From Escherichia phage Ec_YwIITB1, in sequence record PQ356294.1: a stretch of 64,000 bases of DNA; one strand, given 5' to 3'. Position numbers and translations under genes: made by a program. Position 1 is the stretch's first letter; each line of letters begins with the position of its first letter. Below the pieces are notes generated by a model. It did no database searches, was not told the DNA's origin, and was given only the letters and a program-made list of their open reading frames with translations. This document shows, piece after piece, positions 3,778 to 58,372 of this stretch.

Positions 3778-3807
3778 ATAATACCACAGTCCTTGCGGTA
3801 TGTAAAC
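3778..3807 (-). promoter_or_regulatory. T4-type early promoter
   Basis: Minus-strand GTTTAC...(18 nt)...TATTAT then GGAGGAG SD. Confidence 0.6.
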
Positions 3808-3823
3808 CATTTTGTGAAATTTT

Positions 3824-8265: not shown

Positions 8266-8295
8266 ATTATACCACATCCTTGTGGTAAAGTAAAC
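8266..8295 (-). promoter_or_regulatory. early promoter upstream of rIIA.1/rIIA
   Basis: Minus-strand GTTTACtttaccacaaggatgtggTATAAT. Confidence 0.65.
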
Positions 8296-10115
8296 TACTG
8301 GCTCATCCATTCTTTACGAAGGTCAGCATTATCTCCCATGAGCATTTCAAAAAGCTCTTTCCAATTCTCAGGAAGTTTAACAACATCATATACTGGGTTT
8401 TGAATCATCTCACGATATTCAGATTTTTCCAAAGAGCCAAGTCCCTTAATATAACGGATGCTATGTTTAGGTAGAGCATCTTTGGCACTCTCATATTCAG
8501 CGACTGTATAAAACCATTCTTGTTTTTTACCGACCTGAGCGATGATTACAGGAGTTTTGACGAAACGAATTCTTCCTTGTTCAAACAGTTCTGGCCAATT
8601 GCTAAAAAATCCGAGCAGAGAAGGATAAATGCTTCCTAGACCATCATGGTCGGCATCGGTCATAATTGCAATATTGTGATAATTCAAGTTTTCAGCCTTT
8701 TCACCAAGAACTAATCCGGTGATTGCGCAAATATCAAACAGTTCTTTATTTTTAAGCATATCAGCATATGACATACCCCAACTGTTGAGAACTTTACCAC
8801 GTAATGGATAACCACCATGAAGTTCTTTATCACGAACATCAATGAGATATCCAATAGCCGAATCGCCTTCAGTCAAGAAAAGAGTAGTATCAGCATCTTT
8901 ACCACAAAGATTCGCTTTAATGTGTTTATGAACCTTAGCTTTAGAGGCCTTTTTAGCTGCTTTAGTTTCTGCTGCCTTTTCTGCCGCCAATTTACGAGCC
9001 AAAGCAGCTTCAATAATTGGCATTAAAATTGCTTCATTATTTAAAATAGCGCGTGAAATCTTTTTAGCATCAAGCTGAATATGACTACGAATTTCACCAA
9101 ATGGAGAAGTCAAACGCTCTTTAGTTTGAGAATCAAATCGCATGTTTTTCATATCACGAACAAACATGACGATAGTCAAACATTCTTTAACACGTGCTTT
9201 AGTTACATCAATTTTGAACTTACGTTTGATTTGTGGAATAAGGTCTTCACAAATATCATCCATAACGCAGTCAATATGATGGCCACCATTCTTAGTATGA
9301 ATGTTATTGACGTATGTTAATTGACGAAAACCATCTGGTGAACGACCGACCGCAATAGAACAATTTTCTTGTTCTTGAACAATAGCATGCTCATCATATT
9401 GGCGTGCATATTTCTTAAAATTGCCCTGAACCTTTTTACCGTTAAAGGTAAATTGAATATCAGGATAAACTACTGCAAGTGTCTGGAGGCGATCCAATGT
9501 AATGTCAAGATAAACCTGAGACAGCTCATTAGTTTCAAATGACATAAAATCAGGAATGAAAGTAACGCGTGTTCCTTTCCATTTTCCAGGAATATCTTCC
9601 CATGATTTATTTTCCATGCCATTTGAACAACGAACTACAATATTATTTTGACCGTCGCCAGTTTCACCGACAAACATCACAGAAAAAATGTTAGTTAAAC
9701 TAGAACCAACACCGTTCATACCGCCAGTGACGCGTTCTTTGTCATCACCAAAGTTACCACCTGCTTTTGGAATAGTCCAGGCAGCAACGGGACCAGGAAT
9801 TTCTTCACCGGTAGGTGTTTTAACCATCGCTTGTGGAATACCGCGACCATTATCTTCAACTGTTACTTGGTTGTTTTTAATAGTAACATTAATTTTATTC
9901 GCGAATTTAAACTTAGTACGAATACCTTCATCTACTGAGTTATCGATAATTTCATCAATAAGCTTAACAAGACCAGGTACATACTGAACACTTTCCCATT
10001 TACCAAACAGAAAACGCTCATGCATTTCATTAGCGGAAGAGCCAATATACATGCCACTACGCTTTTTGATATGTTCAATATCGCTCAGAATTTTAATTTC
10101 ATTCTTAATCATCAC
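8295..10115 (-). CDS. 39: DNA topoisomerase II large subunit (gp39, contiguous 39+60 type)
   Basis: 606-aa ORF with GyrB-like ATPase and TOPRIM regions; single uninterrupted frame. Confidence 0.93.
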   Translation of the reverse strand: MMIKNEIKILSDIEHIKKRSGMYIGSSANEMHERFLFGKWESVQYVPGLVKLIDEIIDNSVDEGIRTKFKFANKINVTIKNNQVTVEDNGRGIPQAMVKTPTGEEIPGPVAAWTIPKAGGNFGDDKERVTGGMNGVGSSLTNIFSVMFVGETGDGQNNIVVRCSNGMENKSWEDIPGKWKGTRVTFIPDFMSFETNELSQVYLDITLDRLQTLAVVYPDIQFTFNGKKVQGNFKKYARQYDEHAIVQEQENCSIAVGRSPDGFRQLTYVNNIHTKNGGHHIDCVMDDICEDLIPQIKRKFKIDVTKARVKECLTIVMFVRDMKNMRFDSQTKERLTSPFGEIRSHIQLDAKKISRAILNNEAILMPIIEAALARKLAAEKAAETKAAKKASKAKVHKHIKANLCGKDADTTLFLTEGDSAIGYLIDVRDKELHGGYPLRGKVLNSWGMSYADMLKNKELFDICAITGLVLGEKAENLNYHNIAIMTDADHDGLGSIYPSLLGFFSNWPELFEQGRIRFVKTPVIIAQVGKKQEWFYTVAEYESAKDALPKHSIRYIKGLGSLEKSEYREMIQNPVYDVVKLPENWKELFEMLMGDNADLRKEWMSQ

Positions 10116-17482: not shown

Positions 17483-17511
17483 ATTTTTCTCACGGACGGG
17501 TTAACTACTTA

Positions 17512-17542
17512 TACTATAACATTTTTACTTCAGTTTGTAAAC
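17512..17542 (-). promoter_or_regulatory. early promoter upstream of srd
   Basis: Minus-strand GTTTAC with A/T-rich upstream element (aaagttgtttac). Confidence 0.5.
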
Positions 17543-17598
17543 AACTTTATGAAAAATGCTTTAAAACTTTCGTGGTATAATGAATCTAAGTCCTTCCA

Positions 17599-21016: not shown

Positions 21017-21027
21017 TTGAATTATTA

Positions 21028-21264
21028 ACCACCTATTTCTGTAGGCGTAAACATTGCAGCATTCTTAGTTTTCCAATCAGCTGCATCAGAAACTACGGTA
21101 GAATATGCTGCCTTTTCAGAAGGAAAGATTTGATAATGAGAATCTGCGATACGATGCTCGTTAGAATAAATTTCAAACGGAACAGAAACTTCCATACCTT
21201 TAACTTCTTTGCCTTCACCTGCTGGATGAGTAAAGGTCTTGATGTTAACGAAACCACCATAATA
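21028..21264 (-). pseudogene. soc: soc (small outer capsid protein) with start codon out of frame
   Basis: Frame encodes Soc-like ...GGFVNIKTF...HYQIFPSEKAAYSTV...AAMFTPTEIGG but lacks an in-frame start; the SD-proximal ATG at 21260 is offset by one base after a G-run. Confidence 0.6.
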
Positions 21265-21302
21265 AACTCCTTTATTGTTTAATTACAGGTGTATTTATAT
21301 CA

Positions 21303-21821: not shown

Positions 21822-21892
21822 TATTTTTCCTTTCAATTCATGGGTTAGTAGATTAATTATACAATAAATATATAAAGCAATAAGGAGGATAT

Positions 21893-22093
21893 ATGGCACA
21901 AAAATTAATGGCACTTGTTAATGCCATAAAAGGTAATAAAAAACGTATAGCTTTTACTATTTCTGCTATGGTAGGAATTTTACTCTGGAACTTTATTTTA
22001 TCGCCAATTGCAATTGCGCATGGCGTTAATATTCCAGTAGTTACTCTTGATACATTCGTAGATCTAGCATTTGCTTTAGTTGGGTTAATTTAA
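21893..22093 (+). CDS. small hydrophobic protein (66 aa) on the opposite strand
   Basis: Plus-strand ORF with strong AAGGAGG SD 6 nt upstream of ATG; predicted transmembrane segments. Confidence 0.45.
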   Translation: MAQKLMALVNAIKGNKKRIAFTISAMVGILLWNFILSPIAIAHGVNIPVVTLDTFVDLAFALVGLI

Positions 22094-23287: not shown

Positions 23288-23644
23288 TTAACCTCTATTC
23301 ATAAAAGCATTAAAAATTTGGTCATCAATCGATGGAATAGCAACCTTTTCGGCATCATTTAGCAAATCATTAATTTCATCAGATAGCATAACACATGTGC
23401 CTTTATTTCCTGTAATTGTTACTGCACAATTACGAACGTTTTCTTTATTAAATTTTAGGTTAATATTTTCGTAATGAAAATCCTTTAATGCTGAATATAT
23501 TTTTAAAATAAAATTGTCTTTTACTACAATAAATCCAACCTCACTATTAAAACGCGGTTCATGGAAGCTGTAATAAATCTTTTCATCTATGAAATCATAT
23601 GAAATTTTTTCCATTTTTAAATATGAAAATTCAGAACTGTACAT
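23288..23644 (-). CDS. 61.2: hypothetical protein (118 aa), 61.2-position
   Basis: Minus-strand ORF immediately downstream of sp in the 61.x cluster. Confidence 0.5.
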   Translation of the reverse strand: MYSSEFSYLKMEKISYDFIDEKIYYSFHEPRFNSEVGFIVVKDNFILKIYSALKDFHYENINLKFNKENVRNCAVTITGNKGTCVMLSDEINDLLNDAEKVAIPSIDDQIFNAFMNRG

Positions 23645-23656
23645 ACTAACCTCTAA

Positions 23657-23950
23657 TTACTCACCTACCACTTCAGCGATGATATTTTTATTATTAAAGT
23701 TTTTATCGCAATACAGAACATAATTATATTGCATTACACCACCAGATTTAAGCTGTTTTTGCACTTCAGCTTTCATTTCAGGACGATCACGTTCAACGAT
23801 ATTCATAATATCCGCTTCAATTTGAATTTCAACTTCAGTCTGATCTGCAGTCATAGACCATTCGCACAAATCTTTGTCATAACCCGCCATAGCAGGCTGA
23901 GCAGTGCAAGAAGCCAAAGCAAAAATTGCAGCAAAGATAAATTTTTTCAT
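23657..23950 (-). CDS. sp: Spackle (Sp) periplasmic protein
   Basis: 97-aa ORF with signal peptide MKKFIFAAIFALASCTAQPAMA; matches T4 Sp as recalled. Confidence 0.8.
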   Translation of the reverse strand: MKKFIFAAIFALASCTAQPAMAGYDKDLCEWSMTADQTEVEIQIEADIMNIVERDRPEMKAEVQKQLKSGGVMQYNYVLYCDKNFNNKNIIAEVVGE

Positions 23951-23976
23951 GATAATCTCCTCAGTAGTTTATGTTT

Positions 23977-24008
23977 ATATAATATCTCAATTTCCAATAA
24001 AAGTAAAC
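23977..24008 (-). promoter_or_regulatory. early promoter upstream of sp
   Basis: Minus-strand GTTTAC...TATTATATAAAC. Confidence 0.55.
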
Positions 24009-24010
24009 AG

Positions 24011-24310
24011 TTATTTTAAAACTTCTGCATAATCACATGTTACAAACTGTTTCTCTAGTTTAGTAATTTTACGAAAGTATCTTTTGCATTGACGAATCTG
24101 CCGCTTTGTAGGGCGCACAGCAAACTTAATAAATTCCACTCGACCAAATGGAGGGCTTTCTTCTGCTGGAATATCTAACACCAATTCCCACGTATCTGCG
24201 ATAAGTGCTTTGAATTGAGTATTTTTCCTGACATTATACGGTGTAGGTTTAAATAAAACGATATGCATATTATCCTCGGCAATCCACTTCACATACCTTC
24301 TTATCATCAA
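24011..24310 (-). CDS. hypothetical protein (99 aa, 61.4-like)
   Basis: Basic ORF downstream of dmd. Confidence 0.5.
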   Translation of the reverse strand: MMIRRYVKWIAEDNMHIVLFKPTPYNVRKNTQFKALIADTWELVLDIPAEESPPFGRVEFIKFAVRPTKRQIRQCKRYFRKITKLEKQFVTCDYAEVLK

Positions 24311-24452
24311 TAAAAGCTTTAACTAGCGCTTTATTAACTTCAGCATATTGAGTAGTAGCCCATTGAACGTCATCTTTCATCATTGTGATCTCTTTAGTAA
24401 ACATGCTTTCGTTCTTAAACCACCCCATAAAAACTACCTTTACCAATTCCAT
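24270..24452 (-). CDS. dmd: Dmd (discriminator of mRNA degradation; antitoxin-like)
   Basis: 60-aa ORF MELVKVVFMGWFKNE... at the position and length of T4 Dmd. Confidence 0.75.
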   Translation of the reverse strand: MELVKVVFMGWFKNESMFTKEITMMKDDVQWATTQYAEVNKALVKAFIDDKKVCEVDCRG

Positions 24453-24483
24453 AACAATCTCCTCATTTAACCAACAAGACTAC

Positions 24484-24512
24484 TATACCATAGTCTTGTC
24501 GGCTTGTAAACT
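24484..24512 (-). promoter_or_regulatory. early promoter upstream of dmd
   Basis: Minus-strand GTTTACaagccgacaagactatggTATAGT. Confidence 0.55.
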
Positions 24513-25938
24513 AAAATTTTAATTCATTCGCCAAAGCATCTAACTGGGCTCGGGCAGATTCGTTTCTTTGATAGCGATTCTGTTCAGCCTGAATTTGCTG
24601 TGAACCTGCTACTTCGTTCACTTCAGTTGGAGTAGAATCTTGTTCAATTTCTACCCATTTCTGATTTCCTTTTTGAACACCCATCAAAAACTTATTCCAT
24701 TTATTCTTATCACCGTATCGTGATTTGATTTGCTTAATGAGTTGTTGTTCAGCAGCTGCTAGCTCCTCGGTTTCAATGACCGCAAGCATAAAATCAGCTG
24801 TTGCTGGAAGACCGGCAGATTCTGCAATATCGCTCATGTTAACATCAGAAGAATCCCAAGCTTGCTTACCAACCTGTGCTGCGGTCCAAAGAACAGTTTC
24901 AGTTTCAACAGCAAGAGCACGCAATTCTTCTGCAATGGCTTTAACAGTTGTGTAACTATTTTCTGAATAAACTCTGATGCGGCAAGATTTACAAATACCT
25001 AGATAGTCAACAATAATGATTGTTGGAACAAAATTCTTCTTGAGCTTTAATTCATTTAAAAGCGACCGAAATGTGTTAGCGTCTGCTCCACCAGTAGGAT
25101 ACTGTTTAACGATTAAACGACCGAGAGTAGATTTCTCACGCCATTTTTCCATTTTTCCTTTATACTCAGCGTAAGAAATATGCCCATCATCAATGTCATC
25201 AAGAGAAACATCAAGCATATTAGCATCAATACGTTTAGCACAGACTTCTTCTGCCATTTCCATGGAAATGTAAAGAACATTATGTCCGAGCTGCAAATAA
25301 TCTGCTGCTAATGAACACAGACCTAATGACTTACCGACGTTAACACCAGCCATTAAAACATTCAGTGTTCCAGTTTCAGCTCCGCCTTTAGTAATTTTAT
25401 TTAGAATTTTGAGTTTAAATGGAACCTTACGAGCTTTATTCATATAAGATAGCCAACGTGCTTCGTAGTCATCCATCCAATCATGACCAACATAACTATC
25501 AAATGAAATTGATAATGCTTGGCGCATGATGTCAGGAATAGCACCTACATCTGGCATTTTCTTATTTCGTTTTTCTGGAGGAAGCTCAGCATTGGTTTGA
25601 ATTTCAATTATTTTAGACGTAGCATTAAACATCGCCCTTTGCTGAACATATTTTTCTGTTTCTTTTACTAACCAGCTATGGTCTTCTGGAGAATCGGCTA
25701 GTTTCGAAATAAGTGTTTTTACACCAGAATATTCTGTTTCAGTAAATGAACTATTTTCTAATGCAACATTTAACGCATTAATAGATGGAACGCTATGGTA
25801 CTCATTAACATGAGATTTAATTAATTTGAATGTATTTTTAGCTGGACCACTTTCAAAATATTCTGAATCCATATATGGCCAAACTTTTGAAAAATAAGCT
25901 TGATCAAATATGAGATGAGAAAGAATAATTTCTACCAC
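24511..25938 (-). CDS. 41: replicative DNA helicase (gp41)
   Basis: 475-aa DnaB-family ORF with Walker A (GVNVGKS); T4 gp41 length. Confidence 0.93.
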   Translation of the reverse strand: MVEIILSHLIFDQAYFSKVWPYMDSEYFESGPAKNTFKLIKSHVNEYHSVPSINALNVALENSSFTETEYSGVKTLISKLADSPEDHSWLVKETEKYVQQRAMFNATSKIIEIQTNAELPPEKRNKKMPDVGAIPDIMRQALSISFDSYVGHDWMDDYEARWLSYMNKARKVPFKLKILNKITKGGAETGTLNVLMAGVNVGKSLGLCSLAADYLQLGHNVLYISMEMAEEVCAKRIDANMLDVSLDDIDDGHISYAEYKGKMEKWREKSTLGRLIVKQYPTGGADANTFRSLLNELKLKKNFVPTIIIVDYLGICKSCRIRVYSENSYTTVKAIAEELRALAVETETVLWTAAQVGKQAWDSSDVNMSDIAESAGLPATADFMLAVIETEELAAAEQQLIKQIKSRYGDKNKWNKFLMGVQKGNQKWVEIEQDSTPTEVNEVAGSQQIQAEQNRYQRNESARAQLDALANELKF

Positions 25939-27460: not shown

Positions 27461-27537
27461 TCATTTTTTCCATAGGCATCATTATATTTTCCTCACTGGT
27501 TAAAGATAAAGTAATTATAACACAATAAATTTAGGCA

Positions 27538-28386
27538 TTAATCAACTGCTATTGGATGAATAGCATTAAACTTATGAAACGCTTCTGATTTTTCTTTGCG
27601 CGAAACACACATGCGAAGAACCTTTAATGGCTCGTCTTCTTCACCTAATGATTTTCGTTTTTCAATATTAGAAGTTTTCCAACGAGCTTGCTCTGGAAAC
27701 TCTCTATTGATTTGCTCAAGCGCTCTATTATGTTTAGAATTACTACGAATTGAGCTACATCCGCCAGGAGCTTGCGCTTTTCCAGATACAACCAGATATT
27801 TGAACAAGGCCAAATGCGGATAACCTTGATTAATTAAATTGAGAAATGCATACATATCTTCGCATAAATCAATTTTTCCATACCCAATTTGTTCTGTTGT
27901 AAGTTTCCCGAGGTCATACCAAGTATTCGTGAATCCATATGAATTTTCACGATAATTACCCCAAGATGAAGTAATTTTAAAAATTGGTAAACGAGCATGA
28001 CCATGATAATACCCGCAATCCATTGCATCTTCAACGTATTGAATCAATTCATAGAACTGTTCACGAGTTAATTGATTAATTTTATCTACGCAGCGACGAT
28101 CATCTTTCTTTCGCATTGAACTCATACGAATAGTAGTATCATCATCAATCATCCAAATTCGTTGACCTGCATACATATCAGTAATCGCTTTACGAGTACC
28201 AGCAATTCCATTAACATCATCAGGAATAGTTATAATTTTAGCTCTAGACCCGTAAGCGTCATAATAAGCTTTTTCTTCATGTTCACGTACTACAATATGT
28301 GGTTCATAATCAGTCGGAAACATATCAAGGGCAGAAACTGCCCCTACACGTTGATAGCTTGGAATTACGAATTGAATCATTTCCAC
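27538..28386 (-). CDS. putative DNA glycosyltransferase (GT-A-like, DDD motif) in the beta-gt locus
   Basis: 282-aa ORF between uvsX and gene 42 with IWMIDDDTTI (DxD-type) motif; not the 351-aa T4 beta-gt as recalled. Confidence 0.6.
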   Translation of the reverse strand: MEMIQFVIPSYQRVGAVSALDMFPTDYEPHIVVREHEEKAYYDAYGSRAKIITIPDDVNGIAGTRKAITDMYAGQRIWMIDDDTTIRMSSMRKKDDRRCVDKINQLTREQFYELIQYVEDAMDCGYYHGHARLPIFKITSSWGNYRENSYGFTNTWYDLGKLTTEQIGYGKIDLCEDMYAFLNLINQGYPHLALFKYLVVSGKAQAPGGCSSIRSNSKHNRALEQINREFPEQARWKTSNIEKRKSLGEEDEPLKVLRMCVSRKEKSEAFHKFNAIHPIAVD

Positions 28387-36195: not shown

Positions 36196-37878
36196 TTAAA
36201 CCATTACAGTAAATCGACCAACTTTCTTCATTTGAAGATGCTGACCATATTCTTGTGGGTCATGATCTTTATGTGAAATTATAAAAACATTAGTATTTTT
36301 TAAACTATCTAAAATAGTTGAAATAGCTTTTACACCTTCAACATCAGTTGCTGAATCAAAAACTTCATCGAGAATTAGTGTGTTTATTTTAACACCTGAA
36401 ACTTTTTCAGCAATATCACGCCAAGTAAATAAAAGAGCAATATCAATTCGTGCTTTTTCACCTTCACTAAATGAAGCATAACTAAAATCTTCACGACCAC
36501 GGGATTTAATTGTCTCATTAAATTCTTCATCTAATGTAAACACATAATCCGCTTCCATTATTTTAAGATAATGGTTAATCTGCTTATTAAATAATGGAAT
36601 GTACTTTTTAATAATAGCACCTTTAATACCAGAATCTTTGAGCATATCAGTCAAAATTCCTCTGTGGTATTTTTCCATTACCAAATTAGTTTTTGTCTTA
36701 ACAATTTTATCAAGTTCTTCTTGAAGCAGTGCTATTTCATCAGCATGGTCAATAAACTCAGATGATGCTTTTTCTATAGCTGCTTTAACTTTTTTAGCTT
36801 TATCTACAGTCGTGATTAGAGATTGCTTTTTATTGCGAATATCATTTGCCAACGTCTGCTGGGTTTTAATATTATCTCGGTATTCATCAACAAGAACTTT
36901 TAAATTATCACGATGTGTTGAAAGCTGTTCAAACGAATGTGTGCATTCAGAAACTTTATCTTTAATTTTAGAAACAACTTTATCACCGGAACTTAATTGT
37001 GACAAACAGGTTGGACATAATCCACCTTCGTGATACATATTAATGACTTTATTATACGAGTCAATTTTTGATTTAATTAAAAATGCTTCTTGACCGATTT
37101 TATTAAATGCATCAGTCGGGTCTTCATCCAAAACAATATTAACTAATCTTTCATTAGCTTCTTCTATTTCCGATTTTAGCGTTCTGGCTTCTTTTGCCAA
37201 ATCATCATACATATTCTGTAGACGAGTGAGGTTATCACCAGTTAATTTTTTCTGGCGTTCAACGTTATCATTATATATTTTAATTTGCTGGATAATACTA
37301 TCTTTTTTAACATCAAGCACTTGGTTTTGTGAATTTAATTCACGTATTAGTGCTTTATTGAGCTTATCCATTTCAGCTAATGTTCCTACTTCGAGCAGGT
37401 CTTCGACAAGCTTTCTTCTTGCAGGAGTGGATAGGCCCATAAAAGGGGTATATCCAGCCGTGCCGAGTACGACGATCTGTTTGAAACTGGCGTATGACAT
37501 TCCGATAAGCTGTTCAAATTCTGCTTGGAAATCTTTACTGCTGGCAGATTCATTAAGACGTGTACCGTTAACGGTGATTTCGAAAACATTCGGTTTTTGT
37601 CCTCTTTTGATGTAGTACTTTTTTTCATCATATTCCATCCACAGTTCAACTAAAAGTTCTTTCTTATTTGTGCTGTTTATTAATTGACCTTTCTTTACAT
37701 CACGAAATGGCTTGCCAAAAAGCCCAAATGTGATGGCTTCTAACATAGTAGACTTACCACCGCCATTTCGCCCGGTAATAAGAGTTTTTTGAACCTTATC
37801 TAGTTGAATGTCAATAGGATTTCCACCTACTGACATTATATTTTGATACCTAACTCGGTTTAATTTAAAATTCTTCAC
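36196..37878 (-). CDS. 46: recombination nuclease subunit gp46 (Rad50/SbcC-like ATPase)
   Basis: 560-aa ORF with N-terminal Walker A (GRNGGGKST), coiled coil and CxxC zinc hook. Confidence 0.92.
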   Translation of the reverse strand: MKNFKLNRVRYQNIMSVGGNPIDIQLDKVQKTLITGRNGGGKSTMLEAITFGLFGKPFRDVKKGQLINSTNKKELLVELWMEYDEKKYYIKRGQKPNVFEITVNGTRLNESASSKDFQAEFEQLIGMSYASFKQIVVLGTAGYTPFMGLSTPARRKLVEDLLEVGTLAEMDKLNKALIRELNSQNQVLDVKKDSIIQQIKIYNDNVERQKKLTGDNLTRLQNMYDDLAKEARTLKSEIEEANERLVNIVLDEDPTDAFNKIGQEAFLIKSKIDSYNKVINMYHEGGLCPTCLSQLSSGDKVVSKIKDKVSECTHSFEQLSTHRDNLKVLVDEYRDNIKTQQTLANDIRNKKQSLITTVDKAKKVKAAIEKASSEFIDHADEIALLQEELDKIVKTKTNLVMEKYHRGILTDMLKDSGIKGAIIKKYIPLFNKQINHYLKIMEADYVFTLDEEFNETIKSRGREDFSYASFSEGEKARIDIALLFTWRDIAEKVSGVKINTLILDEVFDSATDVEGVKAISTILDSLKNTNVFIISHKDHDPQEYGQHLQMKKVGRFTVMV

Positions 37879-38138
37879 AAAAGATTCCTTTTAATGTATC
37901 TTTTAGACCATTCTATCATATCATCATAATCTAAAAAGTATTCATCAAATTCAGCCATGCAAACAACACCTTTCGCTGCTTTTGATGTGATATAAATTAT
38001 TCCAACATATCTAGAATCTTCTTCGGTGTAATCAATATTTGCTATGAATTCATCGTTAATGTCAAATGTCGAAAACTTCACAGTATGCATCCTTAATACA
38101 AGATACAGCCATATCTTGTAATGATTTAGGTGTGTCAT
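37875..38138 (-). CDS. hypothetical protein (46.1-like)
   Basis: 87-aa ORF with ATGA overlap onto gene 46. Confidence 0.5.
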   Translation of the reverse strand: MTHLNHYKIWLYLVLRMHTVKFSTFDINDEFIANIDYTEEDSRYVGIIYITSKAAKGVVCMAEFDEYFLDYDDMIEWSKRYIKRNLL

Positions 38139-38325
38139 TATCTAAAATGTTGAAGTTAAAAGATACAGCCCAATCAGTGCAGACCGTAACCTTTTTAATA
38201 CAATTATCTTCAATCTCTAGCGGTTCAAACCAATATTCAATAATTTCTTTATGCCCAATATCATCTTTTACTTCGCATTCAAAATGCTGACTCATCATAA
38301 CATTTTTAAATTCATCAAAAGTCAT
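38062..38325 (-). CDS. hypothetical protein (46.2-like)
   Basis: 87-aa ORF between 47 and 46. Confidence 0.5.
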   Translation of the reverse strand: MTFDEFKNVMMSQHFECEVKDDIGHKEIIEYWFEPLEIEDNCIKKVTVCTDWAVSFNFNILDNDTPKSLQDMAVSCIKDAYCEVFDI

Positions 38326-39341
38326 TGTGTTGCCTCTACATATAACTGATTTGCATATTGAATAAGTGCTTCGCGGTCAGAATCAGTGATGTCTGGAATT
38401 GCATTAATGTATTCTTCCATTAACGTCTGAAGAGATTGAACTTCAACTTCTTCGCTATCATCTGACTCGACAGAGTTATCAATCTTTGACACAACTCGTA
38501 ATGAATGCACAACTTTTTCTAGTTCAGATTCGAACTTCGTCAGATTTTTGTCTACTTCAGTTACTATAACACGTACTGATAGATTTGTAAAATCTTTATA
38601 GTCAATTTTTCCCTTAAATGGATATTGAATTCGACGATGCCAGGTAGTGCTGTTTGGAATAAATTCCATTCGTTCTGTTTCTGTATCAAACATCCAGAAC
38701 CCGCGAGGGTCATTCTCGTCACCTGCAGTTAGTGTCCATGGTGTCCCAATATATCTGACGTTAGCAGCCTCAGAGATAGTATGGAAGTGACCAGACCACA
38801 CCTCTTTATAAGTCTTAAGGAAATCAGGTTCAAGACCGTGAGATTTCATTCCTTTATAAAAATAAAATCCATTCAGCTCCCAGTGACCAACACAAAAAGA
38901 AGCAGATGAAGTTTTGATGTGCTCAAGAATTTCACCAGTATTTTCTTCACACATCCAAGGAATTAAATCAATCAAACATCCGTCAAAATCTACTGTAGTA
39001 GGCTTATCATATACTTTAACATTAGGATATTTAGCCAAAAGCTCAGTAGAAGCATTTGGATGCATTACATTTTTGTAGTGGAGATCGTGATTTCCTACAA
39101 TAGTATGTAATGTGATTCCAGCATCATCAAGCATTTGAACTATTTCACGAGCGAACTCCATAGTTTTATGTGTGATTGCTTTTCGCACATCAAAAATATC
39201 GCCGTATTGAATCCATACAGTAATTCCGTTTTTCTTAGAATATTCTATTGCTTGTTTAATTCCATCAATTTGAATACCGCGAATCCACTCATCATCAGCT
39301 TTAACGCCTAAATGCCAATCACCCAAGTTTAGTATTTTCAT
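38322..39341 (-). CDS. 47: recombination nuclease subunit gp47 (Mre11/SbcD-like)
   Basis: 339-aa ORF with metallophosphoesterase motifs (GDWH, GNHD). Confidence 0.92.
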   Translation of the reverse strand: MKILNLGDWHLGVKADDEWIRGIQIDGIKQAIEYSKKNGITVWIQYGDIFDVRKAITHKTMEFAREIVQMLDDAGITLHTIVGNHDLHYKNVMHPNASTELLAKYPNVKVYDKPTTVDFDGCLIDLIPWMCEENTGEILEHIKTSSASFCVGHWELNGFYFYKGMKSHGLEPDFLKTYKEVWSGHFHTISEAANVRYIGTPWTLTAGDENDPRGFWMFDTETERMEFIPNSTTWHRRIQYPFKGKIDYKDFTNLSVRVIVTEVDKNLTKFESELEKVVHSLRVVSKIDNSVESDDSEEVEVQSLQTLMEEYINAIPDITDSDREALIQYANQLYVEATQ

Positions 39342-39518: not shown

Positions 39519-40720
39519 TATTTTGTAATAATGTCAAACTGTTCTTTAAAGCAGAAGCTTGAATCTTGATGCTGATACAAAAATTCATAAGCTTTTTCGC
39601 GTTCACGGTCATAAAGATTTCGGTCAGATGACAGTTCTTTAATACGCTCAAATGTTGATTCCATGTCATTTTCATCAAACCAAACGATACCGCTATCATG
39701 AGAAATTAACGGAGTATTATCAACACGGAATTTTAAATTTTCACCAGTAGATTTCCAAAATACTGGAATTGTTCCGCATGCACCAAGCTCGAGATGAGTA
39801 TATTCTAAAGAACGCTGTAGATATTTTTTATCCAACTTACTCAGCTGATAACCAAATCCGGATTTACTCATGCGTTCAAGCATTTCGCTATTTACATAAC
39901 GGTCAAGAATTTGCGTTGGCAAATTAGGAGCAATTTTAATTTGGTCTACTTGATGAAGACGATAATACTCGTATGGAATTCCTTTTTCTTTAATAGGAAT
40001 GAACGCTGGAGAACGTTCCAGACCTTCCATAATAGTACTTAATCCCGCAGGTTTAAGATGTTTTTCGTGAAAATCAAACATCTGATAAAAACCTTTCCAT
40101 GTAGTCGTACGACCGATCCAACGGTTGACATTCACATTAATTTCAGAAACATCTTTCCAGTAGGTTGATCGAACCTTCGCAATATCCATAGGAGGCTGAA
40201 AGTTGTATACGGTCGGTGCTTCTTCAATATCATCAAATAGAGAAACTGTTTCTGGATACCATTCTTTCATCAGAACTTTATTAAAATCACCATTATCAGA
40301 ATGACTAAAAATAACATCAGCTCGACGAACAGTTTCTTCTAATCCCAAATTTCGGCGCAAAGAAAGAGAAGAATGGTCATGTTGATAAACTACAACACGA
40401 ACCGAAGGTTTAATGTTATCAATAATTTTTTTATAGTTATTAATAGTGTCTTCTTCTACTGAAGTAGCAGGAACTGAATTGATAATTAGAATATCACAAT
40501 CATTTACCAGCTTAAGTGTTTTATCGTATTCTTTTGCCAATAAAACCGGAATTGAAAATGATTTATAATCATGCGCGCAATTACGGGTAAATGATTTATC
40601 TTTAGCATAAACCAAAGTTACTTCATGACCATTTTTAATAAACCAATCACGCTGCTCGAGAGAAAATTTAGTTACGCCGCAACCTTCAAGACCTCGAGCC
40701 ATAAAAATGCATACTTTCAT
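39518..40720 (-). CDS. agt: DNA alpha-glucosyltransferase (alpha-gt)
   Basis: 400-aa ORF at the alpha-gt position downstream of gene 55; T4 alpha-gt length. Confidence 0.85.
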   Translation of the reverse strand: MKVCIFMARGLEGCGVTKFSLEQRDWFIKNGHEVTLVYAKDKSFTRNCAHDYKSFSIPVLLAKEYDKTLKLVNDCDILIINSVPATSVEEDTINNYKKIIDNIKPSVRVVVYQHDHSSLSLRRNLGLEETVRRADVIFSHSDNGDFNKVLMKEWYPETVSLFDDIEEAPTVYNFQPPMDIAKVRSTYWKDVSEINVNVNRWIGRTTTWKGFYQMFDFHEKHLKPAGLSTIMEGLERSPAFIPIKEKGIPYEYYRLHQVDQIKIAPNLPTQILDRYVNSEMLERMSKSGFGYQLSKLDKKYLQRSLEYTHLELGACGTIPVFWKSTGENLKFRVDNTPLISHDSGIVWFDENDMESTFERIKELSSDRNLYDREREKAYEFLYQHQDSSFCFKEQFDIITK

Positions 40721-40786
40721 TTAATATCCTCATTGTTTTGGTTTATTTTACCAAAAATTTATAAAGCAATATAGGGGCCGAAGCTC

Positions 40787-40978
40787 CTATCCGCATAATA
40801 CACCATACAGAGGCTCATTAGAGCTTCTAAATTTTATACGCTTATATGTTATAGTTCCTTCTGCTTTAGCTTTATCATGAGACTCTTTAAAGAGTCTCAT
40901 CATTTCTGCTTTAGAGGAACGAATTTTATTATAATCTATTTCAGAAGTCTGGTGTTCATCTTTCACAGTTGCCACCAT
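40787..40978 (-). CDS. hypothetical protein (63 aa)
   Basis: Small ORF in the 55 to alpha-gt interval. Confidence 0.45.
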   Translation of the reverse strand: MVATVKDEHQTSEIDYNKIRSSKAEMMRLFKESHDKAKAEGTITYKRIKFRSSNEPLYGVLCG

Positions 40979-41169
40979 TTTTTGACTTGATAGGAATCAA
41001 CCCACACTTTCATATTAGGGTCTGCTCTTACAATAGGAGGATTAACTTCTTTAATTGAACTATCATGGTATTCTTTTTCAGAAATTTTCACACAAAGATG
41101 ACCGTTCAAAGATTCAGTAAATCCTGCATTAATTTTAAGACGCTTGAATTTTACGTTTGTAAGCATCAA
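40963..41169 (-). CDS. hypothetical protein (68 aa)
   Basis: Small ORF in the 55 to alpha-gt interval. Confidence 0.45.
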   Translation of the reverse strand: MMLTNVKFKRLKINAGFTESLNGHLCVKISEKEYHDSSIKEVNPPIVRADPNMKVWVDSYQVKKWWQL

Positions 41170-41452
41170 TCATATCCTCAATCTGCGATCTAGTAGTCTT
41201 CCAAAGAATACTAATGAGTTCATCGTTATATGGCTGTTTTAGAATATCCCGACTTTTCTTGATAGCATATTCGTATTGAGCAAAATTATTGTTTTCAGCT
41301 GCAATCTGAGCGTGCTTATAAAGACGGTTCAGTTCGCGTTTATTTTTAGACAATAACTTATTTGCTTTTCTTTCTGCTTCAAGACGGTTCTTTTCTTCAA
41401 TAGAAGAAATAAGCTTTTCCACTTCATCATTAATTTCGGGTTTATCAGTCAT
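41135..41452 (-). CDS. hypothetical protein (105 aa)
   Basis: Minus-strand ORF. Confidence 0.5.
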   Translation of the reverse strand: MTDKPEINDEVEKLISSIEEKNRLEAERKANKLLSKNKRELNRLYKHAQIAAENNNFAQYEYAIKKSRDILKQPYNDELISILWKTTRSQIEDMIDAYKRKIQAS

Positions 41453-41453
41453 A

Positions 41454-41672
41454 TTATTTCTCTAATATAAAATAAAAATCATCATCTGTTAAATGATACC
41501 GATAGTTTAATTCTACACCATTAGATTTAAAAGCGGTATCGTACGGATTTTCTGGATCAATATCAATGTCAAGAGCTAAAACTTCCCTGAGATACATTTT
41601 AAGTAAATAGGGAATAGCTTCAACTTCAGGTATTTCTTCCAAGAATCCGGAGAGGTTAATCGTTAGCCTCAT
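41454..41672 (-). CDS. hypothetical protein (72 aa)
   Basis: Minus-strand ORF immediately downstream of gene 55. Confidence 0.5.
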
Positions 41673-42213
41673 ATAAAAAATCCAAACTAGGAGAATCGTC
41701 TACAACACTTTTCTTTTCAGCCCCCGGTGTTCTATAGGTTGATTCTTCGTAATGCGTCATTTTATCGTAGATGTCTTGAATAAAAGTTTCATCCACTAAC
41801 GCAACCATATCGTCGTCACGACTGTCATAGACATTGTGAACGAAGTAACTGTATTTCTTTGCAACTTCCTTACGTTCTTTTTTAATACGTTGGACGAATG
41901 CATTAAAACAAGCTTGAGTTATATATGCATGCGGGTTTTTATATTTCGTTTCATCAAAATTATGAAGCCCCTTAATAGAAGCTTCTATACCATCTGCAAT
42001 CATTTCTTGTTTCCAGGATTGGGTGTATCCTGAAAAGTTGAAACGTTTAGATAAGCCTTCTGCAATAAGCATAATGGCTAATCCGATAGTATCATTCTGA
42101 CGAACTACTTTATTTGGGTCTTTATTATTTGCTAATTCTGTTTTCCAATCAATAATAGCTTGTAAAAGCTCTTTATTGTTTACGTAATTATATTTAGGCT
42201 TAGTTTCTGACAT
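41656..42213 (-). CDS. 55: late sigma factor gp55
   Basis: 185-aa ORF from [24 protein letters not shown]; matches T4 gp55 as recalled. Confidence 0.92.
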
Positions 42214-42291
42214 TTTCACCTCTTAGCTCAATTCATAGATCTATTATATCATAATATTTGAAGATCTATCTTAAAGCATAGAGGATATCAA

Positions 42292-42561
42292 TTATCTAAG
42301 TAAGCAGTATGCCTGGAATACTTTTTCCATCATCTTTTTAAATTCATGAATATCTATATAATGACTAGTTAAATCAGCATGATATAAAAAGTCTAAAAAC
42401 TTTTCATGCGTGCTAGCATATTCGCTTTCATTTAATTCAGAAACATGACTTTCCCAATATCCAACACCAGTCTTATTTGGGAAAAATGAAATTTTCATGT
42501 ATTGATCAACATAGAAAATGCCATAATTTTCAATAGTAATAGAAATATTAATAAATTTCAT
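42292..42561 (-). CDS. hypothetical protein (89 aa, 55.x-like)
   Basis: Minus-strand ORF. Confidence 0.5.
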   Translation of the reverse strand: MKFINISITIENYGIFYVDQYMKISFFPNKTGVGYWESHVSELNESEYASTHEKFLDFLYHADLTSHYIDIHEFKKMMEKVFQAYCLLR

Positions 42562-42779
42562 GCATTCATCAACTTAGCCGCTTCAAGAGCTGCATCTAGT
42601 GAATCAAACTGGTCAACGTATTCAATCAATTCGCCATAATTAGCGTATAACCACCATTGGCTAAATTCATACTCAAGGATAAATCCATTTCCTTCAATTT
42701 GAGTTAAACCAATGCCATTTGTATTTACTTCATATCCGGCAAGACGTAAATCGTTAATAAGAGCTTCGTTCATATTCAT
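42558..42779 (-). CDS. hypothetical protein (73 aa)
   Basis: ATGA-coupled ORF. Confidence 0.5.
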   Translation of the reverse strand: MNMNEALINDLRLAGYEVNTNGIGLTQIEGNGFILEYEFSQWWLYANYGELIEYVDQFDSLDAALEAAKLMNA

Positions 42780-43102
42780 ACCTTAGCAATTTTCAGGTCA
42801 GCAAATTTTTTCTTGCGTTGATTTTTCATACGACGAATAGTTTTATCGGAAATTTCATGCTTTTGATAAGCTTTAGATTCTACACCAAAAGCTTTAACAT
42901 CAAATTCTGACAAGATATATTGAACCAACAATTCGCGGACAGTATTGCGTCCAATCTTCTGATCGTTTTGTTTCATCGTCTGATGAAGCTCTTTTTCCCA
43001 TTTATCCAAAATTTGAGGAGTTACAATATCTCCTTTTTCTAGCAAAGAAACCACTTTATCATATGCATAAGAATTGATGGCGTTTTTAATTTGAATAGTC
43101 AT
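42776..43102 (-). CDS. hypothetical protein (108 aa)
   Basis: ATGA-coupled ORF. Confidence 0.5.
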   Translation of the reverse strand: MTIQIKNAINSYAYDKVVSLLEKGDIVTPQILDKWEKELHQTMKQNDQKIGRNTVRELLVQYILSEFDVKAFGVESKAYQKHEISDKTIRRMKNQRKKKFADLKIAKV

Positions 43103-43140
43103 ACATTATCCTCAATTGCGTTAAAATTTTATTATCCAAA

Positions 43141-43494: not shown

Positions 43495-43809
43495 TCAGCT
43501 GTAACGATAACACTCGTTTGATTTGCGCTTAGCAACTCGTTGAGAAGTATTATAATCAAAATCATCATCAATGTAAACTGATTTTTTCAACTTTCTTACT
43601 TCACCGCGTAATTGACGATTTAGCTCATCTTTAACTTCTGAATCGATGCCTTTCATTCTACGCCATTTATCAGAGCGAAAAATGTTTTCGACCATATCTT
43701 TATGACTTACACCATCAGGAGCTTTACGCTTTCCAAAATAGTCATAATCACGCACTTTTAAATCTTTACGACGATACGTTTTACCCATGGAGTTTAATTT
43801 CCTTAGCAA
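43495..43809 (-). CDS. hypothetical basic protein (104 aa)
   Basis: Lys/Arg-rich ORF downstream of an early promoter. Confidence 0.5.
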   Translation of the reverse strand: MLRKLNSMGKTYRRKDLKVRDYDYFGKRKAPDGVSHKDMVENIFRSDKWRRMKGIDSEVKDELNRQLRGEVRKLKKSVYIDDDFDYNTSQRVAKRKSNECYRYS

Positions 43810-44748: not shown

Positions 44749-45219
44749 TTAATCATGTTTCCACACCCCATCGGTATTTGACCAAAGTCGCTGATTATCT
44801 GATCCTCGCCACAGCTTTTTGGTCGGAAGATTTTTCTCATACTTCCCATCAATAATAACATCAACATATTTAAGCATTTCTAGTTGTTTAATATCCTCAA
44901 ATTTATATCCTGTCCACAACCAAATGCTTTTATTTGGATAAAGATTTTTTACTGTTTGAACAATGCAATGAATAACATCTCTATTATCAGGATAGAGGGG
45001 GTCTCCCCCAGTTATAGTCAATCCTTCTGTATAATCATTATTCAAACATTCAATTAATTGTTCTAGTGTTTCACCGGTGAATGGAACACCATTTCTAGCG
45101 TTCCATGTTGATTTATTATAACACCCTTCGCATTTATGCAAACAACCTGTAACGAAAAGAACGACCCTGCATCCAGGGCCATTCACAAAATCGCAAGGAT
45201 AAAATCTATCATAATTCAT
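44749..45219 (-). CDS. nrdG: anaerobic ribonucleotide reductase activase NrdG (radical SAM)
   Basis: 156-aa ORF with CxxxCxxC cluster motif (CLHKCEGC). Confidence 0.9.
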   Translation of the reverse strand: MNYDRFYPCDFVNGPGCRVVLFVTGCLHKCEGCYNKSTWNARNGVPFTGETLEQLIECLNNDYTEGLTITGGDPLYPDNRDVIHCIVQTVKNLYPNKSIWLWTGYKFEDIKQLEMLKYVDVIIDGKYEKNLPTKKLWRGSDNQRLWSNTDGVWKHD

Positions 45220-47033
45220 TGGTGTTTAACCCTATGCATGATTTCTTTATTTTTGCCAAGATTAAATCCACGTTCATTCGGATTTCCCAAATAGCCACAA
45301 GTTCTTCTTATTGTGTTCATCTTTTTAGGATCAGTTTCTTCACAAATAGAACAAACAAACCCGTTTTCAGTAGGAGTCATTTCATGGGTACTTCCGCATG
45401 TAAAACATTTATCTACTGGCATGTTAACGCCAAAATAATCTAAATGTTGTGCAGCATAATCCCATACAGCCTCAAGACCTTTTAAGTTATTTTTCATATC
45501 AGGAAGTTCAACATAAGAAATGTGACCACCTGTCGCAATGAAATGATATGGTGCTTCTCGAGAAATCTTTTCAAACGGAGTGATATTTTCTTCTACTGAA
45601 ACATGGAAACTATTAGTGTACCAGCCTTTATCAGTAACATCTTTTACACTTCCATATTTCTCAGTATCAAGTTTACAGAAGCGATAGCACAGGTTTTCAG
45701 CAGGAGTAGAATATAAGCTAAAAGCAAAACCGGTTCTTTCAGTCCACTGCTTAAGACGAGCATTCATTTTAGTTAAAATTTCCTGTCCAATATCACGACC
45801 GACAAGAATATTCAATTCGTGAATACCAATGTATCCTAAGGACACTGAACTTCTACCGTTTTTAAATAACTCAATTATGTCATCATCAGGTTTAAGACGA
45901 ACCCCGAATGCACCTTCTTGATAAAGAATAGGAGCAACGGTCGCTTTAATTCCTTTTAAGGAACTAATTCTACACATCAAAGCTTCAAAACACAAATCCA
46001 TTCGTTCATTGAACAATTCGGCAAATTTCTGTTCATTGAATTGTGTTCCAATATAAGAATCTAACGCAATGCGAGGAAGATTCAGTGTTACAACGCCAAG
46101 ATTATTACGTCCATCAAGAATTTCATTACCAGTCGAATCTTTCCATACACTCAAGAAACTACGACAACCCATTGGAGAAACAGGAATAGATGAACCGGTG
46201 ATAACTTTATTGTTCTTAACTGAAATAATATCAGGATACATTCTTTTGCTTGCACATTCTAACGCAAGCTGCTTAATATCATAGTTTGGGTCGTCTTTAT
46301 AAAGATTAACGCCTTCTTCAACGAACATAACAAGCTTAGGGAAAATAGGAGTTATCCCATCGCGACCAAGACCTTTAATACGATTTTTCAGAATTGCCTT
46401 CTGAATCATTCGTTCAGTCCAGTCAGTTCCCGTACCGAATGTAATTGTTACAAAAGGTGTTTGTCCGTTTGAACTAAAGAGAGTATTTACTTCATATTCA
46501 TAAGCTTGGAATGCATCGTATACGTCTTTTTCTGTTTTAGATTGGGCATAATTCAACGCATCAGCGATTTGCCATTTTTCTGCATCTTCAATATGTTTTG
46601 CATAGGTGCGTTTAACATAAGGAGAAAGTATTTTATCTACATTAGCAAAAGTCGTTCCGCCATACTGATGTGAAGCGACTTGTGCAGTAATTTGTGCCAT
46701 AATTGCAGTAGCAACACCGATTGATTTAGGAGTTTCAATCTGTGCATTTCCAAGCTTAAATCCGTTCTCAAGCATTCCTTTTAAATCTACTAAACAGCAA
46801 TTAGTAAATGGAAGAGCAGGGGAATAATCAATATCATGGAAATGAATAATTCCGCTTTCATGTGCTTTCATAATAAAAGACGGGACCATATTTTTGGCAA
46901 TGTGTTTAGACACAATACCAGCCATAAGGTCCCGTTGAGTTGGAAAAACACGAGAATCTTTATTAGCATTCTCGTTTAAAAGGTCTTTATTAGTTTTATG
47001 AATCAATCCTTCAATTTCTTTTTCAATTGTCAT
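45216..47033 (-). CDS. nrdD: anaerobic ribonucleotide reductase NrdD (intron-less)
   Basis: 605-aa contiguous ORF with C-terminal glycyl-radical motif (RTCGYLG) and Zn-binding cysteines. Confidence 0.93.
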   Translation of the reverse strand: MTIEKEIEGLIHKTNKDLLNENANKDSRVFPTQRDLMAGIVSKHIAKNMVPSFIMKAHESGIIHFHDIDYSPALPFTNCCLVDLKGMLENGFKLGNAQIETPKSIGVATAIMAQITAQVASHQYGGTTFANVDKILSPYVKRTYAKHIEDAEKWQIADALNYAQSKTEKDVYDAFQAYEYEVNTLFSSNGQTPFVTITFGTGTDWTERMIQKAILKNRIKGLGRDGITPIFPKLVMFVEEGVNLYKDDPNYDIKQLALECASKRMYPDIISVKNNKVITGSSIPVSPMGCRSFLSVWKDSTGNEILDGRNNLGVVTLNLPRIALDSYIGTQFNEQKFAELFNERMDLCFEALMCRISSLKGIKATVAPILYQEGAFGVRLKPDDDIIELFKNGRSSVSLGYIGIHELNILVGRDIGQEILTKMNARLKQWTERTGFAFSLYSTPAENLCYRFCKLDTEKYGSVKDVTDKGWYTNSFHVSVEENITPFEKISREAPYHFIATGGHISYVELPDMKNNLKGLEAVWDYAAQHLDYFGVNMPVDKCFTCGSTHEMTPTENGFVCSICEETDPKKMNTIRRTCGYLGNPNERGFNLGKNKEIMHRVKHQ

Positions 47034-47503
47034 TTTAAACTCTTTCTAAGCTGCTTCTTAAATGAAGCTATTAATTGTGTTTTAGTGCCAGATTCATTAT
47101 ATTCAAATCCTCTTTGAAGCATCTCAGCCATCATTTCCTCTTTTCCCAAACGAGAAAATTCCTTTGATTTATCTCCAACGAAGTTAGGGTGAATATTATT
47201 TTGGGTGTAATCGGATTTTAAATAAGTAAGTAAATTTTCTAACCATTCAAGATAATCAACGCCTTGCCCCTTTAAGCCAGAACGATTAAATTTGTGCTTC
47301 ATTTGACCTTCCGCTGCATTGCAGAGATTACAGAGCAATCCACGCACCTTTCCTGCTTTTGGTCCATTTAATTCATGGTCATGGTCAAGGTGATTAGCTT
47401 GAACATCAGGATTTAGTTCTCGTTGGCAAATTAAGCATTTACCATTTTGTGCGTCATAAAATTTCTGTTTTTCTTCTTTATATAATTTGCCAGTCAATAA
47501 CAT
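47030..47503 (-). CDS. 49: endonuclease VII (gp49), Holliday junction resolvase
   Basis: 157-aa ORF with N-terminal Zn-binding cysteines and H-N-H-like core; T4 gp49 length. Confidence 0.88.
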   Translation of the reverse strand: MLLTGKLYKEEKQKFYDAQNGKCLICQRELNPDVQANHLDHDHELNGPKAGKVRGLLCNLCNAAEGQMKHKFNRSGLKGQGVDYLEWLENLLTYLKSDYTQNNIHPNFVGDKSKEFSRLGKEEMMAEMLQRGFEYNESGTKTQLIASFKKQLRKSLK

Positions 47504-56326: not shown

Positions 56327-56356
56327 CGTTTTGCGAAAAATTTTTAAAATAAAAAA

Positions 56357-56374
56357 GGGAGCCCGAAGGCTCCC
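56357..56374 (-). terminator. intrinsic terminator downstream of the nucleotidyltransferase-like gene
   Basis: GGGAGCCUUCGGGCUCCC followed by UUUUUUAUUUU. Confidence 0.7.
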
Positions 56375-56376
56375 TA

Positions 56377-57390
56377 TCATTTATAATAACTTCGGTGGTT
56401 TTCAAGATAAACCCTCTCAAGGAAGTCATCCCAGAAACCCATGTCTACTTTTTGCTGCATACCGTTCTTAGAAGCTTCAATGGATGCTGCTTCTACTTGA
56501 TCGACCACATCTTCCAAAAACTCTTGAACAGTTTTAAATGGATGTTTACCCAACTTCACGTCGAGAATAAATGGAGCGTCTTGAAGTGGATAGACTAGGT
56601 CACCAGTTTTGTAAATTTCCAATAGTTGGAGTCCACCACGACAAGCATGACTCAGAGCTTTCCAGTCAATGCCCTCATTAGCTTCGGCCTTACGAGCGCG
56701 TTCGCCATATTCAGCATCTAATTTATTCAGTGACTGCTTAAGCTCAATAAGAGAAAGTGTTGTTTGATATTTACGACCCAACACGGTGTAGAACGTTTGT
56801 GGACCTGTTTTCTCATGATTATGGAATACCCATTCACAGAATTCGTTCTCTGGAAGACGATGCTTAATATCTTCAACTTTAGTTCGACGTTGCTTAATGG
56901 AACCGTCTTCTTGGTAATCAACCCATTGCTCAGGGATTTGATTAACTACTTTCAATACATCACGTAATGCGGCCAAACGAGAACCCTTAACACCATATTT
57001 AGAAGCTTGCTTGCGAACATATCCTAAATAGGATTTCATGTTAGTCGTATAAAAACGAGAACGATTGTCTTGAATAAACTTCCATACATCAGGCAAATCA
57101 GATTTAACTACCAGTTCAGGTGGAGTGTGGAGCATATCCAATGCTACAGTTTCACCATCTGCTGCTAATTTAAAGAAATACTTAAGACTGTATAGTTCAT
57201 GGTCAATATCATCTTTAGTGTTTTTAGATGATGTGCTGTTAGTGTTTTTACTCATATGCTCTTTAACATTTCCGATAAGAATATCACGAGCAGGAGGAAC
57301 AAAGATTTCTTTAAAATCTACATCAGATTCTGGAGTAGAAGTTCCATAAAGATGACTACCAAAATAGCTTTTCATTACTGTTTTCATCAT
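56377..57390 (-). CDS. nucleotidyltransferase-fold protein (nrdC.11-like)
   Basis: 337-aa ORF with N-terminal GS...DVD motif typical of pol-beta-superfamily nucleotidyltransferases. Confidence 0.55.
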   Translation of the reverse strand: MMKTVMKSYFGSHLYGTSTPESDVDFKEIFVPPARDILIGNVKEHMSKNTNSTSSKNTKDDIDHELYSLKYFFKLAADGETVALDMLHTPPELVVKSDLPDVWKFIQDNRSRFYTTNMKSYLGYVRKQASKYGVKGSRLAALRDVLKVVNQIPEQWVDYQEDGSIKQRRTKVEDIKHRLPENEFCEWVFHNHEKTGPQTFYTVLGRKYQTTLSLIELKQSLNKLDAEYGERARKAEANEGIDWKALSHACRGGLQLLEIYKTGDLVYPLQDAPFILDVKLGKHPFKTVQEFLEDVVDQVEAASIEASKNGMQQKVDMGFWDDFLERVYLENHRSYYK

Positions 57391-57848
57391 TCAGCCTTAT
57401 ATTCAATAACAGGACATACTTTAGCTTTACGCGCTTTTAAAAATTCGACGATAATAGATTTCTTGGGTTGAATAGGAGGTAAACCTTTATACGCTCTATC
57501 AATATTTTCTACATGTAAAGCATAATCCTTTTTCCATTTATAATCTTTATATTTTTCATGCAGTTGTGCAGGAATAACAAATGAACCAATAATAAGTAAA
57601 ACAAGCAAAATGGCAAGTATAAATGCTGATGGAATAAGAGTCCATAAACTACCAAAAATAAGCCATTTCTGTATGATTTCTGCGCAGATGATAGTTAGAC
57701 CTGCGAGCATAGTACATCCGAATAAAGAAACGAAAAATGTAGGGATAACAATAGACCAAAAATACGCGCACAGTGTCTTAGGTCGTTTCCATTCGTCGTT
57801 AAACATTTTGAATAATTTATAATGCCAAGAGTTTTCATTAATAACCAT
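57387..57848 (-). CDS. hypothetical multi-pass membrane protein (153 aa)
   Basis: Several hydrophobic segments; ATGA-coupled. Confidence 0.5.
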   Translation of the reverse strand: MVINENSWHYKLFKMFNDEWKRPKTLCAYFWSIVIPTFFVSLFGCTMLAGLTIICAEIIQKWLIFGSLWTLIPSAFILAILLVLLIIGSFVIPAQLHEKYKDYKWKKDYALHVENIDRAYKGLPPIQPKKSIIVEFLKARKAKVCPVIEYKAE

Positions 57849-57850
57849 AA

Positions 57851-58372
57851 TTATCCTTTCATTGAAGGTGTAACAGTTGTTAAATACTTAATCATAGCTT
57901 CAGCTTCTGATTTTGATAATGAAATTTCTCCATTGTTTTGACGAATAGAAATAAAATCCGGATGACGGTCACCACCAGCTTTTAAAATACACATATAAGT
58001 ATCAGTTTCATCTTCAATATCTGAAATAATTGAAGCAGTTCCACATGAATGTGGTTTTTGATAAATCAATGCAGCTTTTCTTCCACCGTTTGACTGTTCA
58101 TAAACTTTTAACACATCAAACAAATCGCTTCTTTTATCAATAGCTAAGATGTTGTTTTCATCTTCAATATTAAATCCTTCGGATACTTCATAAAGTGTCA
58201 CCCATAAATCACCTATATCGATAGTAGCATTTCCTTTTCCACGACTTTCAAGAATATGACAAATTTTCTTGATTTCGTCATAACTCATTTTAATAATATC
58301 ATCTCCTTGAATAAGGAAGATGTCATTTTTAAATTCAACACGAATTAAACCACTTCCACTTGAAATAAACAT
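57851..58372 (-). CDS. hypothetical protein (173 aa), paralog A
   Basis: C-terminal motif EAEAMIKYLTTVTPSM shared with the next ORF. Confidence 0.5.
   Translation of the reverse strand: MFISSGSGLIRVEFKNDIFLIQGDDIIKMSYDEIKKICHILESRGKGNATIDIGDLWVTLYEVSEGFNIEDENNILAIDKRSDLFDVLKVYEQSNGGRKAALIYQKPHSCGTASIISDIEDETDTYMCILKAGGDRHPDFISIRQNNGEISLSKSEAEAMIKYLTTVTPSMKG

Follow-up and report, generated by a model that had tools for sequence, protein, structure and literature searches.

The nrdD gene of Escherichia phage Ec_YwIITB1 raises the question of whether an intron-less anaerobic ribonucleotide reductase gene, in a region where several homing-endonuclease genes (HEGs) of phage T4 are missing, is a departure from the T-even pattern and a naive target for homing, or simply an ordinary state of these phages. 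Since the late 1980s it has been known that T-even phages vary in which of the T4 introns and free-standing endonuclease genes they carry, and homing and marker-exclusion crosses use T2 as their standard recipient. We analysed a 64,000-nt stretch of the genome (PQ356294.1), referred to here as the window. By megablast the window falls within Tequatrovirus; ECP2301, ime09, sb2 and pSs-1 are among the phages to which it is 96-97.5% identical. Position 5838 of the window corresponds to T4 coordinate 1, and the stretch spans gene 52 through rIIB and then rIIA to vs.1. Our reading, which we hold with high confidence, is that this is a T2-like Tequatrovirus carrying the common uninvaded nrdD allele, and that seven selfish elements of T4 are simply absent from it, as they are from T2 and from most natural relatives. 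The coordinates of the features on which this reading draws are collected in Table 1.

Table 1. Features of the window that bear on the nrdD locus and on the positions of T4 homing elements
Feature	Position	Strand	Remarks
nrdD, class III (anaerobic) ribonucleotide reductase large subunit	45216..47033	minus	single uninterrupted ORF, 605 aa + stop
nrdG, radical-SAM activase of NrdD	44749..45219	minus	80% identical to T4 NrdG
gene 49, endonuclease VII	47030..47503	minus	99.4% identical to T4 gp49; Pfam Endonuclease_7 and dimerisation domain
T4 nrdD intron insertion site equivalent	46495..46496	minus	after coding nucleotide 538, in codon 180; empty
I-TevII homing site equivalent, 30 bp	46476..46505	minus	GCTTATGAAT followed by ATGAAGTAAATACTCTCTTT, insertion site between the two; T2-type allele
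topoisomerase II large subunit, unsplit (T4 genes 39 + 60)	8295..10115	minus	606-aa ORF; PHROG 543 full length, E 1e-295
empty segF slot, spacer between soc and gene 56	21261..21302		T4 15614-16307 (segF) reduced to about 36 bp
empty segA slot, 77-bp spacer after uvsX	27461..27537		T4 23555-25497 (segA + beta-gt) replaced
beta-glucosyl-HMC alpha-glucosyltransferase, T2/T6 type	27538..28386	minus	PHROG 842, E 1.9e-89; Pfam TAGT, E 1.2e-9
empty mobB slot, spacer between alpha-gt and alpha-gt.2	40721..40786		T4 37817-38679 (mobB) reduced to 25 bp
mobD position, occupied by two ORFs	57387..58372	minus	57387-57848 and 57851-58372

The gene itself is intact. It had been described from the letters alone as one continuous 605-codon ORF, and the ORF call and the Pfam NRDD match agree on this: residues 21-604 of the product cover profile positions 1-562 of 562 in PF13597 (E = 1.9e-170). 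The probability of 605 codons without a stop arising by chance is about 3e-20, given a stop-triplet frequency of 0.072 on the minus strand. The product also matches Pfam Gly_radical (E = 2.8e-25) and contains the glycyl-radical motif RRTCGY with G580, which is the RxCGY signature of class III enzymes. C290, C79, N311 and the zinc site C543/C546/C561/C564 are all in place; the numbering of these residues, Gly580 among them, follows the T4 NrdD structure. Downstream lies the NrdG activase, with its CX3CX2C cluster at C26/C30/C33. By family profile, catalytic and zinc residues and adjacent activase, the gene encodes a class III NrdD.

The start of nrdG overlaps the stop of nrdD in the tetranucleotide ATGA (45216-45219), and the stop of gene 49 overlaps the start of nrdD by 4 nt in another ATGA. 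In our reading, translation of nrdD is coupled to that of gene 49 upstream and of its activase gene downstream. The product of gene 49 is a Holliday-junction resolvase and not a homing enzyme.

T4 nrdD (sunY) has the same neighbours as the gene in the window: gene 49 precedes it, and nrdG and nrdH follow. It differs in carrying a group IA intron (1033 nt) with I-TevII after nucleotide 538, in having mobC between nrdD and nrdG, and in a tract of seven exon positions considered below. The best splice model for T4 gives a first exon of 538 nt, the intron of 1033 nt and a second exon of 1280 nt, and the joined exons have exactly the length of the window ORF. Alignment to these exons, the check proposed at the outset, is gapless and places the insertion site between 46496 and 46495, where the T4 intron is precisely absent; the blastn blocks break at 46495/46498. 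At the protein level, NrdD and spliced T4 NrdD are identical in 596 of 606 columns (605 residues plus the stop), or about 98.3%. Searched against Rfam, in which the group I core is family RF00028, the whole 64-kb window had no match that reached the gathering score, and no family of introns appeared at E <= 1, while the T4 nrdD intron scored 105 bits in the same search.

The sole Rfam match in the window at E <= 1 was to L20_leader, at 56341-56504 on the minus strand; it scored 29 bits (E = 0.11), where the gathering score is 58.7. This weak match is probably due to chance, and an intron remnant in the window was rejected as a candidate.

We searched the same window for HEGs by several routes. 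In tblastn at E <= 10, the best E value for any of the 15 T4 HEG proteins was 0.067, compared with 2e-105 for gp49 as a control. A search for the Mob-type HNH motif (HHIIPR..GG..N) recovered 5 of 5 genes in T4 and found none in the window. Custom profiles built from nine T4 GIY-YIG proteins and from four Mob proteins were run on six-frame stop-to-stop ORFs of at least 30 aa. Among the window ORFs the best E value was 1.1 for GIY-YIG and 0.69 for Mob-HNH, whereas in T4 the same profiles recovered all nine GIY-YIG genes at 2.6e-24 or better and the Mob genes at 1.9e-15 or better. As a control, 14 of 14 modelled T4 genes were recovered at E <= 2e-15, among them the mobA relic of 37 aa; I-TevIII, present in T4 as a defective relic, is an HNH protein of another type that lies outside the profile models, and it was not recovered. 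Degenerate relics comparable to the 37-aa mobA were rejected for the window, as none was found by tblastn at E <= 10, by regular-expression searches or by the custom profiles.

The window also contains ORFs that have no T4 counterpart, including a T2/T6-type glucosyltransferase and several families of unknown function, and Pfam and PHROGs scans of these ORFs found no nuclease domains. As the custom profiles derive from T4, an endonuclease family that is novel or very unlike those of T4 would be detectable only through these scans of window-specific ORFs. The remainder of the phage genome, beyond the window, may carry HEGs. Within the window, GIY-YIG and Mob-type HNH motifs and intron core elements were not found, by searches that recover the T4 intron and the 14 modelled genes.

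Comparison with T4 position by position shows what is missing. Five elements had been listed as absent, and all five are; the full number is seven, namely mobA, segF, segA, mobB, mobC, the nrdD intron with I-TevII, and mobD, with mobB and mobC as the additions. The missing T4 blocks are sharply delimited, and each of them coincides with a T4 HEG. At the mobA slot there is no mobA, gene 60.1 or 50-nt bypass: T4 2794-3910 is reduced to 64 bp, with the junction at 8631-8694, and the topoisomerase gene is unsplit, collinear with the 605-aa ORF of T2. SegF, SegA, MobB and MobD had no match in the window by tblastn or HMM. The glucosyltransferase gene after the segA slot sits at the place of T4 beta-gt and is collinear with T2. 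The mobC (or segH) slot is likewise empty, as nrdG and nrdD overlap at 45216-45219, where T4 has the 633-nt mobC.

The mobD slot calls for a qualification. The original prediction had the mobA, segA, segF and mobD positions lacking ORFs; the homologues are indeed absent from all four, but the mobD position is not ORF-free. Neither of its two ORFs encodes an endonuclease. The first in window coordinates (57387-57848) encodes a 153-aa membrane protein, the pair at 57387-58372 being assigned to PHROG 944 ('membrane protein') and PHROG 1502. The second (57851-58372) encodes a 173-aa y05I-like protein related to MobD.1 (Pfam T4_y05I_N, E = 2e-32; T4_y05I_C, E = 3e-23). The idea that a new kind of HEG occupies this slot was rejected, since its ORFs belong to the membrane-protein family and the y05I/MobD.1 family.

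Two further observations concern the junctions that flank nrdD. In T4, mobC is bordered by an imperfect 21-nt direct repeat (T4 42896-42916 and 43518-43538), of which the window has a single copy at 45199-45219. The repeat exists because MobC and NrdG both begin MNYDRIY. It could be a microhomology used at insertion, or it could be a coincidence, as NrdG of E. coli also begins MNY. On the other side of the gene, an additional ORF of 273 aa separates nrdD from gene 49 in phages G8 and fPS-2; in fPS-2 its annotation is homing endonuclease. Phage Manna has two shorter CDSs annotated as hypothetical proteins at the same position. The junction of nrdD and gene 49, at which the window genes overlap by 4 nt, is another optional HEG slot.

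The closest classical counterpart of this arrangement is T2 (AP018813), in which nrdG occupies 40366-40836, nrdD 40833-42650 and gene 49 42647-43120. Like the window, T2 has an unbroken nrdD of 1818 nt with 4-nt overlaps to nrdG and gene 49, an unsplit gene 39, and a beta-alpha-glucosyltransferase gene after uvsX. It lacks mobA, segA, mobB, mobC and the intron, and is collinear with the window at these places. The two nrdD genes are 95.7% identical at the nucleotide level. Other close relatives are Shigella phages sb2 and pSs-1 and Escherichia phages Ec_MI-02 and ime09, which in the nrdD region and over window 40000-64000 are collinear with the window, 96-97.5% identical to it and distinguished from it by point differences only.

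Two genes outside the nrdD region also differ from relatives. T2 has dam and the window does not: the DNA adenine methyltransferase gene, which in T4 lies at 16846-17625, is absent at window 21861-21882, and tblastn with T4 Dam found none in the window. The soc gene (about 21025-21260, minus strand) appears to be frameshifted by a 1-nt deletion, reading ATGGTGG at its start (21257-21260) where sb2, with an intact soc start, has ATGGGTGG. Other top relatives align 322 nt to the 321-nt query, implying the same 1-nt difference. This difference leaves the Soc reading frame without a start codon. Either soc, whose product is a non-essential protein decorating the capsid, is a real pseudogene here, or the deletion is a homopolymer sequencing error.

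How common the intron-less state is can be read from sequence records. The T4 nrdD intron sequence occurs in 25 phage records, many of which are T4 stocks or RefSeq duplicates, while a 100-nt probe over the empty junction of the window has an uninterrupted match in 612. The original prediction took T4 as the norm, and on this point it was mistaken: besides these counts and the identical arrangement in T2, reviews describe T4 as the HEG outlier (PMC2988022, PMC2993671), and the table of Petrov et al. gives 15 HEGs for T4, one for T2 and none for RB26 (PMC2993671). In two phages, JEP6 (MT764206.1) and SA20RB (OL960581.1), the junction probe matches only in part, over bases 44-100 and 1-48. Their nrdD genes may be divergent, or may be interrupted near the junction by an element other than the T4 intron.

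The sequence around the empty site is informative about how the intron may have moved. The T4 exon junction reads GCTTATGAGT followed by ATGAAGTGAACACGTTATTC, as against GCTTATGAAT followed by ATGAAGTAAATACTCTCTTT in the window, so that 23 of 30 positions match while the encoded protein is identical. The seven silent differences lie at -1, +8, +11, +14, +15, +17 and +20 relative to the insertion site. Between -30 and +34, no position differs between T2 and the window. Across the 1818 nt of nrdD, T4 and T2 differ at 44 positions, and 7 of these fall within 22 nt, against an expectation of about 0.5 for a stretch of this length. The extent of the I-TevII recognition site, and a cut 13-15 nt 3' of the insertion site (+13/+15), were reportedly described by Bell-Pedersen in 1990 and Loizos in 1996; four of the window-T4 differences (+11, +14, +15 and +17) would presumably surround that cut.

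The state of the seven sites tracks the intron in every phage checked, with T4 and six further carriers on one side and T2 and the window on the other. All six of the other intron-bearing phages (PST, G8, fPS-2, EC128, Manna and RPN226) have the T4 state at 7 of 7 sites. T2-type states are frequent among their markers from +35 onwards and, on the upstream side, farther out than about -150 to -180, and their nrdD genes are mosaic. In EC128 and RPN226, the T4-type tract lies between T2-type markers, bounded at +35 downstream and beyond about -150 to -180 upstream. On the simplest reading, this looks like a short co-conversion tract that accompanies the intron and extends less than 35 nt on the 3' side. 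This reading implies that T2-type alleles have received the intron in nature.

This pattern supports, without proving, the proposal that nrdD of the window is a naive homing target, which is plausible. During co-infection with T4, I-TevII would be expected to cleave this allele some 13-15 nt to the 3' side of the empty site. Repair templated by the T4 gene would bring in the intron and, with it, a short stretch of T4 exon sequence.

The same seven positions allow a different reading, in which the T2-type sequence at the insertion site is not a naive target but an allele selected for resistance to I-TevII, the seven silent changes blocking binding or cleavage. The density of the differences around the reported cleavage position would fit such an allele, as would the finding that, among records with a contiguous junction match, the T4-type junction has a best identity of 94.4% and no match above it. 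If true, it would also explain why the intron is confined to so few sequenced phage records. However, a T4-type tract with T2-type bounds, as in EC128 and RPN226, is the expected trace of homing into T2-type recipients with co-conversion. The nrdD intron has, moreover, been reported to home efficiently into intron-less targets (PMC1865063), and GIY-YIG homing enzymes are described as generally tolerant of many substitutions (PMC5009752). We therefore consider a resistant allele improbable.

It could also be that the lineage formerly carried the intron, and that a precise deletion, or recombination with an allele lacking it, left a cured site. The accepted life history of a homing element is one of repeated invasion, decay and loss (PMC2988022), and the mosaic of T4-type and T2-type markers in nrdD would be in keeping with such exchanges. 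Precise deletion, however, should have left a flanking tract of T4 type, and is contradicted by the T2-type state of the window at 7 of 7 linked sites; nor does the window hold any remnant of the intron or its ORF. Replacement by an intron-less allele would be indistinguishable from never having been invaded. We consider past loss improbable, and an uninvaded nrdD is the reading we retain.

For the free-standing enzymes, the case for a naive target is weaker than for nrdD. The mobD slot is taken up by other genes, and gene 56 (dCTPase), the target of SegF, is a third allele in the window (21303-21914). Its nucleotide identity is about 77% to T4 and about 75% to T2, whereas its neighbours stand at 92-96%.

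In summary, an intron-less nrdD accompanied by the absence of HEGs is nothing new, having been described before, and the experimental role that was proposed for this phage is already played by T2. The value of the present analysis is modest: for one more phage, it maps cleanly the seven T4 HEG positions that are empty or replaced. Of secondary interest, the nrdD intron and the seven-site exon tract go together in all six intron-bearing phages that were compared besides T4. For T-even phage genomes, an intron-less nrdD without HEGs is the ordinary state and not an unusual one, and T4 is the heavily invaded exception.
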